This document shows positions 15,320-53,563 of a stretch of DNA of 64,000 nt, piece by piece. Position 1 is the stretch's first letter. Each line of letters begins with the position of its first letter. Source of the DNA: an uncultured Candidatus Melainabacteria bacterium (GTDB lineage: Bacteria; Cyanobacteriota; Vampirovibrionia; Gastranaerophilales; Gastranaerophilaceae). A model generated the notes under the pieces. That model did not search any database, was not told the DNA's origin, and saw only the letters and a program-made list of their open reading frames with translations. The position numbers and the translations under genes are program-made. Location: positions 1,688 through 65,687 of the forward strand of contig CAKUUY010000009.1 of assembly GCA_934693235.1 (NCBI GenBank), given 5' to 3'.

Positions 15320-15397
15320 AATTGTATTATAGCACAATATCCTTAAATTAAAGGATAACAGAATTGTTAAAAATTATTATCTGCAAAAGTTTTTTTG

Positions 15398-15675
15398 ATT
15401 ACGGAGTCAAATTGCCACGATAGCGGCATGAACAATAACTTGTTAGTGAAACAGACAACAAAAACAGCCATTATTTGAGCGTTTAGCGAGTTTGGCTGTA
15501 TTAGAGTTGAACTTACAAGTTATTAGAGAATGGAGCGTGTGGCTGGCTTTGTGGAACTTTTTACACAAAAAGTTCCCGCAGTCCGCGCAGGACAAATATT
15601 TTTGCAATTCAAATTTTACCAATGTTTATTCTTAACTTTAATATATGCGAAAAAGTGCCAAATTGACTCCGTAAT
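15398..15675. mobile_element. MITE-like / structured non-coding element, copy A, with 21-bp terminal inverted repeats
   Basis: attacggagtcaaattgccac (15398-15418) versus gtgccaaattgactccgtaat (15655-15675), 19/21 complementary; internal stems 15434-43/15515-24, 15464-70/15493-99 and perfect 10-bp hairpin 15553-15576; no ORF. Confidence 0.7.
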
Positions 15676-15759
15676 TTTAATTTAATTAATTATAAAAATT
15701 TTCTATATTTCGTATAATTGTAGGATAACAAATCTTGAAAAATAATCTAGAATGCGGAT

Positions 15760-34486: not shown

Positions 34487-34496
34487 GGGGGGGGGG
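34487..34496. repeat. Homopolymeric G10 tract
   Basis: gtc-GGGGGGGGGG-cagt counted directly; same C-G10-CA context as the tract at 45274. Confidence 0.95.
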
Positions 34497-34701: not shown

Positions 34702-34889
34702 TTCTCGCCCCTTGGGGAGAGAAGAAATTTCTTAGCGAATGTTGTTGAGCTTAGAAATTTCAGAGAGGGGGAAAATCAAACTAATTCAAAACAAATGTCT
34801 AAGGTATGGATGAATTGCGTACCCTCTCCCAAATTTCTAAGTTCGCCTTAGCTCACTAAGAAATTTTGCCCTCTCACAAGGAGAGAGGG
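34702..34889. repeat. Composite GC-rich repeat block: two ~55-bp imperfect inverted units built from CTCTC/GAGAG hairpins and AAATTTCT/AGAAATTT stems
   Basis: Unit 34716-34771 versus reverse complement of 34822-34875 (shared aaatttcttag...cttagaaattt); hairpins 34702-34723 and ccctctc/gagaggg 34869-34889. Confidence 0.75.
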
Positions 34890-34958: not shown

Positions 34959-35831
34959 ATGAATGCAAAATATCTAATCCGAAAAGACCTTAGTGCCCTA
35001 GTGCCTCAGTATCCTAGTAACTTTTATCATAAAAAATCCGCTTTCACTCTCGCAGAAGGTGCTACGCACGTAGCCCACTGGAAAGACTCACGTAAAGTAG
35101 CCTTTACATTGGCAGAGGTTTTAATCACCCTCGGCATTATTGGCATTGTTGCTGCTTTGACTTTACCTACTCTTATTCAAAACCACCAAAAAAGAGTCGC
35201 TGTAGAGGGATTGAAAAAGGAATACTCCATTTTGCAGCAGGCTTTGAAAATGTATCAGGCAGACAATAATGTTGATTTTGACGAAATAGAAACAAATCTT
35301 ACTGGAGAAAAATTTATGCAAACATATATTTTACCATACGTTCAAATAATAGGAGAGTGCAAAGGTACTGCTAAATGCTACAGAAAACCTCCTCTTGCTA
35401 TAGATAGAAAAACGAAATTAGTAATAGGTAATAAATTTTATATTTTGAAAGACGGAGCTTTTTTAGGTATAAATCTAAATAGTACATCCGGAAAAGTTTT
35501 TTATATAGATATTAATGGAGCAAAAGAACCCAATTACGCAGGCAGGGATATATTTTTCTTTTACTATGTTAATAAAAAAACTATTTTAGACGATAAAGTG
35601 CATCCGGAATGTGACAGTGGGGTGAGTTCGTTAAAATCAGGATTATATCCTGGAGCTTATTCTGCTTGTTATCTCCCTTTTACAAGATTTTCAAGAGCGC
35701 AATTGCTTGGGAGTAGTATTGACAGAAGCTGTTCGCGAAATGCGTTGAAATTAGCCGTAGTGGGAGGCGATGCATGTGCAGCATTGATTATGCTGGATGG
35801 CTGGAAGATAGAAAAGGATTACCCTTGGTAA
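34959..35831 (+). CDS. Prepilin-type N-terminal domain protein, family member PL3, with 48-residue leader containing a duplicated prepilin motif
   Basis: ...HKKSA|FTLAEGATHVAHWKDSRKVA|FTLAEVLITLGIIGIVAALTLP...; IDINGAKEPNYAGRDIFFF; C-terminus LDGWKIEKDYPW; AAAGGA SD. Confidence 0.85.
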   Translation: MNAKYLIRKDLSALVPQYPSNFYHKKSAFTLAEGATHVAHWKDSRKVAFTLAEVLITLGIIGIVAALTLPTLIQNHQKRVAVEGLKKEYSILQQALKMYQADNNVDFDEIETNLTGEKFMQTYILPYVQIIGECKGTAKCYRKPPLAIDRKTKLVIGNKFYILKDGAFLGINLNSTSGKVFYIDINGAKEPNYAGRDIFFFYYVNKKTILDDKVHPECDSGVSSLKSGLYPGAYSACYLPFTRFSRAQLLGSSIDRSCSRNALKLAVVGGDACAALIMLDGWKIEKDYPW

Positions 35832-43713: not shown

Positions 43714-45153
43714 ATGAATCCGGAATTGTATGAACGTTATTTGGCAAAGAAAGCTAAAAAATTAGGAATATCAGTAGAGGAATTAAAGGCTCAAGGAACG
43801 TCTTCGCCAGTAAAAGAAGCTGAAACAACTTCAAATCTTTCTGTTTCAGCGATGCAAACTTCTGCAAATCAGACGTTACTAGCGTCCCCTCAGCCCGTTC
43901 AAAGTTCTTTTCAAACTGCGCAACAATATTCACAACCTGGTCAATTCCAACAGCAAGTTGTTCAACCTCAGCCTGTCCAGCAGACTTTTAGTCAGGTACA
44001 ACAGCCACAGTATGTTCAACAGACAATTCAAGGGCAGTTAGAGCAACAGAATACGCAAACTTCGCCACAAACATTTCAGCCACAAACACAACAAACTGTT
44101 TCTCAACAGTTTGAACAACCTCAAACGTATAACCAATCTCCGTCTGAGCCGCCGAAGTATCAGCCTTATTCAGGTATGCAACAAGAGACTGTTAAGACAG
44201 AGGTGCCATCATATATTTTTGGACCGTCAAAAATGACGGAGCCACCAAAATATTCAAGTAGTCCGATTAGTCAACCGCTCAAACCTGAAGAACCGATTAT
44301 TAAAGACAACAGAGAAAATAAATTTGGGTTAATCGGTTATCCTTTAGGACATTCTTTGTCAAAAGTTATCCATGAAGCGGGTTTTAAGAGTTTGGGGATA
44401 AATGCAACTTATGATATCTTGGAAACACCGCCGGATACGCTTGTTAACAGAGTAAAGTTTTTGAAAGGTAACGGCTACAAAGGTTTTAATGTTACTATAC
44501 CGTTAAAATTACCGATTTCATTGTTTGTAAATGAGGTCGATAAATATGCTGATTTAGCACGTGCCGTAAATACGATTTATATTGAACCGGATAAGTCTTT
44601 AAAGGCATATAATACGGATGTTTTGGGATTTAAAAGAGCAATTCCTAAAGATATTAATTTGGCCGGTAAAAGTGTTGCTATTTTGGGAACAGGTGGTGCT
44701 GCTCACGCGGCTTGCGTAGCGTTGACAGAATGTCGAGTTAAAGAAATTGCATTTTTTACGAGAAATATTCCAAATTCGATTGATTTGATGAATTATGTGA
44801 GAAGAAAATTTCCGTCAATTGATTTTAATGTTTATCAAATTGAAAATATTCGTAATTTGGGTGATTTTGCAATGCTTGTAAACACTACTCCTATAGGGAT
44901 GCTAGGGAAAGCCGGAGATATGATGCCAGTCGAGACAAAAGCATTAGAAAGCTTAAGTCACAATGCTGTTGTATACGATGTTATTTACAATCCTAAAAAA
45001 ACAGTTCTCATAAAAGAGGCTGAAAAGTTGAGATTGAGAACGATTACAGGTTTGGATATGTTAATTTATCAGGCTGTAGCAGCTCAAGAGATTTGGTTTG
45101 GGCAAACTCCTGATTTTAAAGATATGAAGATTGCAGCGTTAGAAGCTCTGTAG
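43714..45153 (+). CDS. aroE: Shikimate dehydrogenase fused to a ~200-residue N-terminal Q/P-rich low-complexity extension
   Basis: AroE core from about 44320 (KFGLIGYPLGHSLSKVIH..., NVTIPLK, LGTGGAAHA); upstream 202 codons are an open frame rich in Q/P/T/S with AAAGGA SD at ATG 43714. Confidence 0.8.
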   Translation: MNPELYERYLAKKAKKLGISVEELKAQGTSSPVKEAETTSNLSVSAMQTSANQTLLASPQPVQSSFQTAQQYSQPGQFQQQVVQPQPVQQTFSQVQQPQYVQQTIQGQLEQQNTQTSPQTFQPQTQQTVSQQFEQPQTYNQSPSEPPKYQPYSGMQQETVKTEVPSYIFGPSKMTEPPKYSSSPISQPLKPEEPIIKDNRENKFGLIGYPLGHSLSKVIHEAGFKSLGINATYDILETPPDTLVNRVKFLKGNGYKGFNVTIPLKLPISLFVNEVDKYADLARAVNTIYIEPDKSLKAYNTDVLGFKRAIPKDINLAGKSVAILGTGGAAHAACVALTECRVKEIAFFTRNIPNSIDLMNYVRRKFPSIDFNVYQIENIRNLGDFAMLVNTTPIGMLGKAGDMMPVETKALESLSHNAVVYDVIYNPKKTVLIKEAEKLRLRTITGLDMLIYQAVAAQEIWFGQTPDFKDMKIAALEAL

Positions 45154-45182: not shown

Positions 45183-45211
45183 TTGAAAAGTAATATTAAA
45201 TATGTTAAAAT
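45183..45211 (+). promoter_or_regulatory. Sigma70-type promoter of PL4 (TTGAAA-17-TAAAAT)
   Basis: -35 at 45183-45188, 17-nt spacer, -10 at 45206-45211; GAGAGG SD at 45232-45237; ATG 45243. Confidence 0.6.
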
Positions 45212-45242
45212 AGTATTGTTACATAGAATTAGAGAGGTAAAA

Positions 45243-46006
45243 ATGAGAAAGATTTGTTCTGAGAAAGCTTTACGGGGGGGGGGCAATCGCTAAAATCCTC
45301 TGATATCAAGCGTTTTGGGTTTACATTGGCAGAGGTTTTGATTACTTTGGGGATTATTGGAGTTGTTTCTGCTTTGACAGTTCCATCGTTGATGCAAAAT
45401 TGGCAAAAAGATGCTTACACAACTCAATTGCATAAAGTTTATACTGAGTTATCTCAAGCGGCTATAAAAGCTGCAAATGACAATAATGCGATATCTCTGG
45501 ATGAAACTGATTATGCTTGCACAAATGAACATGGTGCAGAAGAGTTTTTTAGAAAATATTTTAAAGTTGTAAAATCTTGCGGAACAGATTTGACCCCTTG
45601 TTTTGCATCAAGTTACAAAAATATAGATGGTACTGATTTCGAATTGGGAACTCCTGAATATGTTGCAACTATTGCAAGTGGTGCATCTATATCAGTATTG
45701 TATAATGATCTTGGATATGAAGAAAGTGGTTGTGGTTTGGGGGATTTAGGTCCAGCTAAATGGCATGGCTATATGCATCTTCAAGTTGATACAAACGGAG
45801 CTCAGGGACCAAACAGAGTGGGTAGAGATTTATTCTATATGGAATTATATAGTGATGGTAAAGTGGCAGATAGCTATACTGACGATGAATTGTGGCGTGC
45901 AAAATACTGTACAGAAGAAGATGAAGATGGTTATAGTTTAGGTTTTGGTTATGGTGGAGGTTGTCTATCTCGTATAATCAAAGACGGATGGCGAATGACA
46001 TATTAA
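45243..46006 (+). CDS. Prepilin-type N-terminal domain protein, family member PL4; out of frame at a G10 tract in this sequence (G11 or G8 restores the frame)
   Basis: ATG 45243 frame stops at TAA 45291 after G10; pilin frame open from 45263 (…KRFG|FTLAEVLITLGIIGVVSALTVP…); VDTNGAQGPNRVGRDLFYM; C-terminus IKDGWRMTY. The track finds only 45326..46006 from an internal TTG. Confidence 0.7.
45274..45283. repeat. Homopolymeric G10 tract inside the PL4 leader-coding region
   Basis: tac-GGGGGGGGGG-caat counted directly. Confidence 0.95.
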
Positions 46007-46060
46007 ATAAATGAAAAGGTAAAAACACGAGGAAATGAATATTTTCATTTCCTCGTTGGT

Positions 46061-46420
46061 TTAAACAGCTAACTCCAGTAACAAATCTTTGATTGTTCCG
46101 GCTAACTTATAGATTTTTTTAGCCTTGTGAGTTTTTACTTTAAATATTATCAGTAATGAATAAATTGCAACAGCAAAAATTACTTTAGATATCAATTGTT
46201 CTCGTTTTTTCTTTACAAAGGTAATCGCATTTTCAAATGAGTTTTTGAAAGTAGAAACTAAACATCTCCCATATTGCATGCATGTTTGCAATAATGGATT
46301 AAATGTTTCTACACAAGCGTTATAATAACGTACTTGTCTATCCCATTTTATCAAGTGACTGATTATAAAATGGGCAATTATTAATTCTGCTATGAAAATT
46401 ATTGCGATAAATATGTACAT
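46061..46420 (-). CDS. Hypothetical membrane protein
   Basis: 119 aa; two hydrophobic helices (YIFIAIIFIAELIIAHFII; VIFAVAIYSLLIIF). Confidence 0.5.
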   Translation of the reverse strand: MYIFIAIIFIAELIIAHFIISHLIKWDRQVRYYNACVETFNPLLQTCMQYGRCLVSTFKNSFENAITFVKKKREQLISKVIFAVAIYSLLIIFKVKTHKAKKIYKLAGTIKDLLLELAV

Positions 46421-53059: not shown

Positions 53060-53144
53060 CTGAACAAAATCTGTACTATTCACTTGATTTTCAGACTTTT
53101 CAGAAAGTTACTATTCAGAATTTATTAATGTTGATTTTTTATAT

Positions 53145-53378
53145 GTCCTGCGCGGACGGCGGAAACTTTTTGTGTAAAAAGTTTCACAAAACCAGCCACA
53201 CGCTCCATTCACTAATAACTTGTAAGCTCAACCTGAAAACAGCCAAACTCGCGCTATAGAACTAAATCGGGAACTGTTATCAAAAAACTCAGGCGCTCAG
53301 ACAAAGGCTGTTTTTTGTTATTTGTTTCGCTAACGAGTTATTGTTCATTCTGCTATCGTGGCAATTTGACTTCGTAAT
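53145..53378. mobile_element. MITE-like / structured element, copy B (inverted relative to copy A; one TIR present, AT-rich arm absent, ~39-bp internal insertion)
   Basis: gtggcaatttgacttcgtaat (53358-53378) matches copy A left TIR 20/21; long shared blocks such as gagcgtgtggctgg and ctttttacacaaaaagtt in reverse complement; hairpin 53162-53185. Confidence 0.7.
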
Positions 53379-53563
53379 CTGTGGTTTTGGTAGAGTAGCT
53401 GTTATTGTATCAAAAAAAATGTGTTGTAAATTATTAAATCGGGAAATTTGAACCGCGCAATCTGTAAAATATAAAAATTAAAATTTAACAATTGTACACA
53501 TATTAGCAATTATTTTTGTTGAGCAGTGTTAGGACATGCAGGTTAACAACAATGAAAGGGAAA

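Follow-up and report, generated by a model that had tools for sequence, protein, structure and literature searches.

A ten-guanine tract in the leader of a pilin-like gene of an uncultured Melainabacteria bacterium is a candidate slipped-strand phase switch

The pilin-like gene PL4 lies in a stretch of 64,000 nucleotides (nt) from an uncultured Candidatus Melainabacteria bacterium of the Gastranaerophilales (GenBank assembly GCA_934693235.1, contig CAKUUY010000009.1, positions 1,688 to 65,687), referred to below as the window, and its leader is interrupted by a run of ten G residues that breaks the reading frame. This tract is interpreted as a slipped-strand translational switch in which G10 is the OFF and G11 the ON state, and the probability of this interpretation is put at about 0.74. 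As judged by sequence comparison, homopolymer switching of PL4 is supported by strong evidence at the level of the gene family, and not yet by variation at the PL4 locus itself. The features of the PL4 region are as follows.

45183..45211, + strand: promoter-like TTGAAA-17 nt-TAAAAT with TG before the -10 hexamer, the top regional match (10/12)
45232..45237, + strand: Shine-Dalgarno sequence GAGAGG, 5 nt before ATG 45243, by direct reading
45243..45293, + strand: mini open reading frame (mini-ORF) and leader start, translated at G10 as MRKICSEKALRGGGNR and a stop, the OFF product
45263..45319, + strand: leader segment in the prepilin frame, ESFTGGGQSLKSSDIKRFG, open and with its own start codon absent
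45274-45283, + strand: G10 homopolymer, the proposed switch, read from the sequence
45284..45300, + strand: conserved 3' flank CAATCGCTAAAATCCTC, from the flank profile of 52 G-type tracts
45305..45307, + strand: ATC codon where short-leader paralogues carry ATG (IKRFG vs MKxxG), from leader comparison
45317..45334, + strand: prepilin peptidase motif G(-1)↓F(+1)-T-L-A-E(+5), where ↓ is the cleavage site (TIGR02532, PF07963)
45320..46006, + strand: mature pilin-like coding sequence of 228 codons and TAA, intact in three lineages

An earlier note on this DNA had named the G10 at 45274-45283, the TTGAAA-17-TAAAAT promoter at 45183-45211, GAGAGG, ATG 45243 and the stop TAA 45291, and all of these are present. 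At G10 the frame opened by ATG 45243 comprises 16 codons and stops at TAA 45291-45293, and the prepilin frame is one base out of register with it (-1). From 45263 onwards the prepilin frame is open, but, as the note had said, it contains no ATG; its earliest start codon is TTG 45326, which lies past F-T-L and would delete these residues. The G10 thus sits between ATG 45243 and the G↓FTLAE motif at 45317-45334, i.e. in the 5' coding region. The predicted fusion of the two frames by G11 or G8 into a leader with a G↓F site was reproduced when the tract was rebuilt in silico, both lengths giving MRKICSEKALRGG(G)QSLKSSDIKRFG↓FTLAEVLITLG... through to the stop at 46006, with products of 254 (G11) and 253 (G8) amino acids. 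With G7, G9, G10, G12 and G13, translation terminated after 15-20 codons, and a change of one unit, from G10 to G11, converts the truncated product to the full-length one.

In the proposed switch, transcription would proceed from the conserved TTGAAA-17-TAAAAT promoter, and ribosomes initiating at ATG 45243, just 3' of GAGAGG, would translate 10 codons before entering the tract. With G10 they would end at TAA 45291, and a peptide of 16 residues would be made instead of pilin (OFF). During replication, slipped-strand mispairing would add one G (G11) or remove two (G8); translation from the same start would then yield MRKICSEKALRGGGQSLKSSDIKRFG↓FTLAEV..., a prepilin that has E+5 and can be cleaved at G↓F (ON). 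The ON leader would be 26 residues long and end at this prepilin peptidase site, and the mature N-terminus after cleavage would be N-methyl-FTLAEVLITLGIIGVVSALTVPSLMQNWQK. Given that G10 is the modal and a comparatively stable length in the clade, most populations would be OFF with a minority subpopulation ON. The PL4 tract itself would be expected to vary, the fused protein would presumably be made, cleaved and displayed, and switching may confer evasion of immunity or phage, or altered adhesion.

Variation in tract length was observed at two loci, both homologues in another species represented in public gut metagenome assemblies. The two loci share the cassette, which consists of a Shine-Dalgarno sequence, ATG, ~10 codons, C-G(n)-CAAT... 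and then G↓FTLAEV, and individual protein clusters (90% identity) contain full-length calls alongside calls that are truncated at the N-terminus. Locus 1 (P0021 cluster) lies between an isochorismatase gene and ribF. Its allele A, ...AGCTTC-G(n)-CAATCGTAGC..., is G10/OFF in the ten assemblies shown (L086-L095) and G11/ON in four (L106-L109). In allele B the C after the tract is absent, and G9/ON was found in seven assemblies (L110-L116), G10/OFF in nine (L096, L097, L099-L105) and G11/OFF in one (L098). None of the 1950 flanking positions (0/1950) differs between the G10 and G11 carriers at locus 1, where ON forms account for ~11/91 contigs (~12%). Locus 2 (P0196/P0195) adjoins a tetratricopeptide repeat (TPR) gene and has both G10/OFF and G11/ON on each of two haplotypes, which are nine single-nucleotide polymorphisms apart in 1859 nt; the presence of both tract states on both haplotypes indicates recurrent changes. 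Here ~34 contigs are ON and ~42 OFF (34/76 ON, ~45%). At both loci the ON forms read as predicted. In SRR27010004 locus 1 is ON (G11) and locus 2 OFF (G10), and in ERZ28436875 the reverse was found; hence, the two loci switch independently. The tract mutates far faster than the surrounding DNA at both loci, and both states reach consensus frequency in natural gut populations.

The tracts are evidently not a chance feature of the DNA. In the window, which has a G+C content of 34%, GGGGGGGGGG occurs twice against 0.00 expected from 100 dinucleotide-preserving shuffles, in agreement with the claim that G10 is non-random in DNA this AT-rich. These two G10 tracts, both located 5' of pilin-like genes, are the only G/C runs of at least 7 in the window; there are no G runs of 6-9, and C6 runs number two. 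An alignment-based scan of species-representative genomes identified 80 pilin-like loci in Gastranaerophilales metagenome-assembled genomes, whereas a genome-contig scan with the PL4 protein as the single query recovered no relatives. Together with the window, the 80 loci made up the tract survey, covering ~500 kb of Gastranaerophilales DNA, and all G/C runs of at least 8 in it (60/60) lie 5' of a pilin-like FTLAEVL motif, 52/60 within 250 nt and 8/60 at a distance of 337-672 nt. The 52 near tracts comprise G10 (36), C10 (7), G9 (3), G11 (2), G12 (2) and C11 (2), the modal length being 10. The surveyed loci gave 97 hits to the pilin-like motif, including a few due to chance; a tract is absent from 38 of these, 31 are OFF, 13 are ON and 15 have their own ATG 3' of the tract. 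Each of the 31 OFF loci has a mini-ORF that begins with ATG, spans 6-12 codons (e.g. MKRFSNV or MKKFSHV, analogous to that of PL4) and runs out of frame into the tract, and wherever an OFF locus has a 10-nt tract (27/27), the mini-ORF would come into frame with a length of 11 or 8, like that of PL4.

The sequence around the tract is also conserved in the family. The consensus derived from 52 G-type tracts is C-G10-CAAyCGyTTAAGCTCC, and the CAATCGCTAAAATCCTC flank of PL4 is also found in L061, L074, L077 and L086. Database homologues that are in frame encode predicted leaders such as MKKHETLLNSFGGGGNRSLG↓FTLAEV and MHRGGGNSLKSS..., and the ESFTGGGQSLKSSDIKRFG leader of PL4 is homologous to the in-frame leaders MHRGGGNSLKSS... 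(P0104, P0118) and ...GGGGNLSKSS... (P0012). In nine loci (L010, L016, L037, L039, L062, L065, L067, L068, L073), C10 or C11 tracts lie on the pilin strand and give 'PPP' leaders. Both the core and the flanks of these C-type tracts correspond to the G-type sequence in reverse complement, with profile scores of +0.8 to +7.8 when reverse-complemented and of -4.7 to -16.7 as read. Palindromes containing AGCT bracket the core in several C-type loci (e.g. L062, L067, L073), and this arrangement suggests micro-inversions. Gene calls beginning 'MPPP...' in the P0115 cluster were left uncounted as ON, as they probably reflect a TTG start abutting C9, and not the ATG of the mini-ORF, by analogy with the C-tract flank of L016. 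A scan of Joint Genome Institute (JGI) metagenomes for AAAGCTTTAC-N6-16-CAATCGCTAAAA gave one match (L117), which has no G run and was rejected as due to chance.

The assignment of PL4 to the pilin-like proteins is based on its N-terminus, in which G(-1), F(+1) and E(+5) are combined with a hydrophobic segment. The fused product matches TIGR02532, the prepilin-type N-terminal cleavage/methylation domain, with 21.6 bits (cutoff 16.3) and PF07963 with 21.3 bits (cutoff 21.2). In an AlphaFold2 model of the fused protein built from 30 homologues (mean predicted local distance difference test score, pLDDT, of 76), the leader (residues 1-26) is predicted to be disordered and is followed by a 52-residue N-terminal helix (29-80) and a beta-sheet domain of 5 strands. 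The window contains five pilin-like genes, all with FTLAEVLITLGIIG, scattered singly among housekeeping genes. The scanned ORFs of the window are housekeeping genes and include no prepilin peptidase or assembly machinery. Database homologues and genome titles assign the organism to the Gastranaerophilales (Melainabacteria) of animal and human guts. Three of the five window genes have short leaders (MKNKG, MKNRA, MKKFA), and on comparison with these PL4 has ATC 45305 in place of ATG, in all three lineages (L003, L005). ATC 45305 is therefore probably a disabled ancestral short-leader start, and its loss would tie the expression of PL4 to the tract.

Orthologues of PL4 were found in assemblies from other samples. 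L001 and L002 represent two Logan runs and are locally 100% identical. L003, L004 and L118, probably from one sample, have ~89% nucleotide identity to the window over 6 kb and the gene order topA-aroE-PL4-x-murT-pdxJ; L118 is 100% identical to L003 over 6.6 kb and thus is no independent sample. The orthologue in L005 has 80% protein identity. In all PL4 orthologues, G10, the frame offset, the promoter, the Shine-Dalgarno sequence, ATG, TAA and ATC 45305 are kept; both promoter hexamers and their spacing are retained in L003 and L005, and GAGAGG is unchanged in L001, L003 and L005. The ratio of nonsynonymous to synonymous substitution (dN/dS) for PL4 in the three lineages is 0.19-0.25 at dS 0.41-0.53, and its 221-228 codons contain no stops or frameshifts. 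Hence, PL4 is not a pseudogene, and selection maintains it though every consensus reads OFF.

Several results weigh against the switch at PL4. G10 was the only tract length observed at PL4, both in the window and in four other samples (three lineages), and the protein cluster of PL4 (~13 contigs) contains no in-frame form of 254 amino acids, all of its members being OFF-type calls with internal starts. One of these, P0136, is a 219-residue call identical to the window PL4 and present in 8 contigs, counted from the call and not from tract lengths. The invariance of G10 over lineages at dS ~0.45 would also fit a mechanism acting at the RNA level, and the globular domain of the PL4 model had no match in the PDB at E <= 0.001 (Foldseek). 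The earlier note had proposed a slipped-strand phase switch and had looked to tract lengths in related genomes, regarding an invariant G10 in relatives as evidence against it. An invariant G10 is indeed what the few available PL4 orthologues show, whereas lengths in related assemblies vary at two homologous loci, with G9, G10 and G11 in homologous cassettes; the proposal is thus upheld for the homologues, but PL4 itself has yielded only G10. Given that the ON consensus makes up ~12% and ~45% at the two homologous loci, the absence of an ON form from the few PL4 samples is weak evidence.

Among the alternatives, RNA-level recoding on a fixed G10 would account for this invariance, though it is considered unlikely. 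RNA polymerase slippage adding a G, or a -1 ribosomal shift on G GGG GGG, would give constant low prepilin and no heritable states, and may coexist with slippage of the DNA. Precedents are the out-of-frame poly(A) tracts of insect endosymbionts, which are rescued by transcriptional slippage, Shigella mxiE and Thermus dnaX. As in such cases, the tract of PL4 is a conserved out-of-frame run of ~10 nt in a gene under purifying selection, being G10 and OFF in all orthologues of the three lineages. The family mode of exactly 10, with each of the 27 OFF loci that have a 10-nt tract one base below the ON length, the match between a 10-nt run and the approximate length of the RNA:DNA hybrid, and the -1 position of the pilin frame relative to the ATG frame, with the G run forming a perfect slippery sequence, are likewise consistent with recoding. 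However, most known sites of slippage in transcription are A/T runs whose effect is on the RNA, whereas the tracts here are G:C, occur in either orientation, including as C10 on the coding strand, and are polymorphic at the DNA level at homologues. As G9/G10/G11 variation with an ON consensus occurs in the DNA of homologous cassettes, an RNA mechanism is not required. The predicted fold of 45225-45345 has a minimum free energy of -22.1 kcal/mol, as compared with a shuffle mean of -22.9 (z = 0.25), and, being no better than shuffles, leaves a frameshift stimulator unsupported.

A more elaborate and similarly doubtful possibility is that the C-G10-C core with its ~16-nt flank is a portable phase-variation cassette that has spread, either way round, to dozens of Gastranaerophilales pilin-like genes. 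Selection favouring a programmed mechanism would keep the tract at exactly 10 nt, close to the RNA:DNA hybrid length and a single base below ON; this mechanism, operating atop DNA slippage, could be slippage in transcription or a core-recognising factor. If so, a non-photosynthetic cyanobacterial gut symbiont would have a combinatorial, tunable pilin repertoire.

It is quite improbable that PL4 is silenced or decaying, with the frame break a fixed inactivating mutation and the tract having no switching role here. The OFF state is the only one in every assembly and cluster member, and with many paralogues, five of them in the window, the loss of one gene could be tolerated. However, a dN/dS of 0.19-0.25 over dS ~0.45 with no further lesions in three lineages, the conservation of promoter, Shine-Dalgarno sequence, ATG and tract, and the ON state of homologous cassettes in other samples all contradict decay. 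Still more improbable is an explanation in which the spacing of an additional promoter, TTTACG-16-TAAAAT (45269-45296), is governed by G(n), or in which translation starts at TTG 45326 or ATC 45305. This promoter-like sequence (9/12) does span the tract, G11 would give it the optimal 17-nt spacer, and in 15 loci of the family the tract lies 5' of a gene with its own ATG, in several with a TGTTATAAT box in between. It is nevertheless weak and not conserved in other cassettes, there is neither an ATG nor a Shine-Dalgarno sequence between it and F+1, TTG 45326 would remove F-T-L, and the leaders of in-frame homologues show translation through the tract. A tract-spanning promoter was consequently rejected as the main mechanism, as it is weak, unconserved and has no start codon 3' of it. 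Finally, an artefact of sequencing or assembly (two-colour poly-G, homopolymer miscall or chimeric join), which the earlier note had also considered and for which problems of Illumina chemistry at G tracts ('G's end') offer a basis (PMC9187656), is effectively refuted, since the same G10 and flanks were obtained from different samples and assemblers (L001, L002, L003/L004/L118, L005), both sides are collinear with orthologues in the synteny topA-aroE-PL4-murT-pdxJ, and this class of tract is specific to one gene family.

A slipped-strand switch of this kind belongs to a well-known class of mechanism; what is new is the host clade, the restriction of the tracts to one large pilin-like family in the sampled DNA, and the conserved leader cassette in either orientation. 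No prior report of homopolymer phase variation in Melainabacteria or Gastranaerophilales was found in the searchable literature. Like Campylobacter jejuni, the nearest parallel in genome style, these bacteria have an AT-rich genome otherwise without G/C runs of ~8-11, in which intragenic tracts with a sharp modal length toggle the frame at many independent loci (PMC3401435). The mode for polyG/C in C. jejuni is G9, ascribed to a length-dependent bias with insertions at short and deletions at long tracts (PMC3401435), whereas the mode here is 10. The C. jejuni tracts are scattered over glycosyltransferase, capsule and flagellar-modification genes, whereas those reported here are, in the sampled DNA, confined to one pilin-like family. 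They also differ in having a conserved leader cassette (mini-ORF, C-G10-C, ~16-nt flank) and in their host, a non-photosynthetic cyanobacterial relative.

By position, the nearest parallel is in Neisseria, where pilC reportedly carries a poly-G tract in the region encoding its signal peptide, and opa has CTCTT repeats in the leader-peptide coding region (a leader-coding repeat, as in PL4, whose length decides whether the mature surface protein is made; pilC moreover ties poly-G slippage to type IV pili). The opa repeat is described in PMC3960869. Unlike the tracts here, it is a pentamer, and PilC is a tip adhesin or assembly factor with a Sec signal, not a prepilin-type subunit, while the major pilin of Neisseria varies by gene conversion and not by a leader homopolymer. 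The nearest parallel in ecology is another gut commensal, Bifidobacterium breve UCC2003, in which tracts in bbr_0113 (G11) and bbr_1889 (G10) interrupt loci for sortase-dependent pili (PMC9187656). As in PL4, the G10/G11 is entered by a first ORF that, in the reference genome, does not share the frame of the downstream pilus ORF, and the second ORF has no independent initiation (PMC9187656). G10 was found to be stabler than G11 there, and the in-frame length was enriched in vivo (PMC9187656). In B. breve, however, the pili are Gram-positive sortase pili, the genome is of high G+C content and one or two loci are involved, whereas here the signal peptides are of class III and many scattered single genes per genome carry tracts. 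In the present family, length 10 dominates both at most loci, where ON requires G11, and in allele B, where it requires G9; this resembles the modal length in C. jejuni and fits the greater stability of G10 in B. breve.

Gastranaerophilales are uncultured gut bacteria that are related to Cyanobacteria and occur widely; next to nothing is known of how they interact with their hosts. The DNA sampled from them contains poly-G/C contingency loci reminiscent of Campylobacter, which are devoted to a large family of scattered pilin-like genes and switch in natural gut populations. The cell-surface or pilus repertoire is thereby identified as subject to fluctuating selection, for which immunity, phage or adhesion niches may be responsible. 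The G-tract phasotypes can serve as a marker for strain dynamics in metagenomes. The tract also accounts for a systematic truncation by gene callers, many entries beginning at an internal Met or Leu. Tract-bearing pilin-like genes are routinely cut to internal Met, Leu or Val starts (P0001, P0003, P0121-P0123, P0130, P0136, P0195), and many database entries of the family consequently lack both the prepilin motif and a Pfam annotation.

The second G10 tract of the window has a different layout.

34487..34496, + strand: second G10 of the window, 463 nt 5' of ATG 34959 of the pilin-like gene PL3

The mini-ORF MNLKEELKNVEFAMKIAV runs into this tract, and in silico no tract length fuses it to PL3. 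The spacer between the tract and PL3 is GC-richer and contains two near-perfect hairpins, at 34724-34761 and 34831-34866. Rfam gave only sub-threshold matches near the second tract, including whalefall-1 at 34702-34772 with 23 bits against a cutoff of 37, and over the whole window at the gathering threshold it identified one tRNA and nothing else. The distant-tract layout recurs in L038, L059, L060, L061, L077, L079 and L082. The leader of PL3 (34959-35102) doubles the prepilin motif, as ...KKSA↓FTLAE-GATHVAHWKDSRKVA↓FTLAEV. An insertion of the form 'FTLAEGATHV...(R/K)xA↓FTLAEV' recurs in P0018, P0026, P0107 and P0116 and in L012, L015, L049, L054, L058, L059 and L077, and contains the small palindrome GCTAC-GCAC-GTAGC. 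From these sequences, the doubled motif looks like a conserved module of 45-60 nt inserted after E+5. In some loci with their own ATG and ...KICYNSD... leaders (L007, L008, L019, L022, L036, L041, L073), a perfect extended -10 element, TGTTATAAT, lies between G10 and a short MKKxG start. The tract being 5' of the promoter in these loci, it cannot act through the reading frame there.

Downstream of PL4, one further feature was recorded.

46027..46056, strand not assigned: 13-bp hairpin separating PL4 from the convergent gene 46061-46420(-), with a minus-strand call of a terminator-like site

In L119-L128, a small convergent minus-strand ORF lies ~45 nt 3' of the pilin-like gene and is called with 61 or 65 amino acids depending on the assembly. 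The shikimate dehydrogenase gene located 5' of PL4 (43714-45153) encodes an unusual N-terminal extension of ~200 residues, which is Q/P-rich and of low complexity; the orthologous AroE in L003 is similarly long (485 amino acids). Elsewhere in the window, a non-coding repeat of ~200-280 nt is present at 15397-15678 and 53140-53379 as two inverted copies with arms that are 90% complementary. It had no match in Rfam and may be an element similar to miniature inverted-repeat transposable elements or a structured RNA. Terminal inverted repeats of 16 nt, TTACGGAGTCAAATTG ... CAATTTGACTCCGTAA, delimit the first of the two copies.

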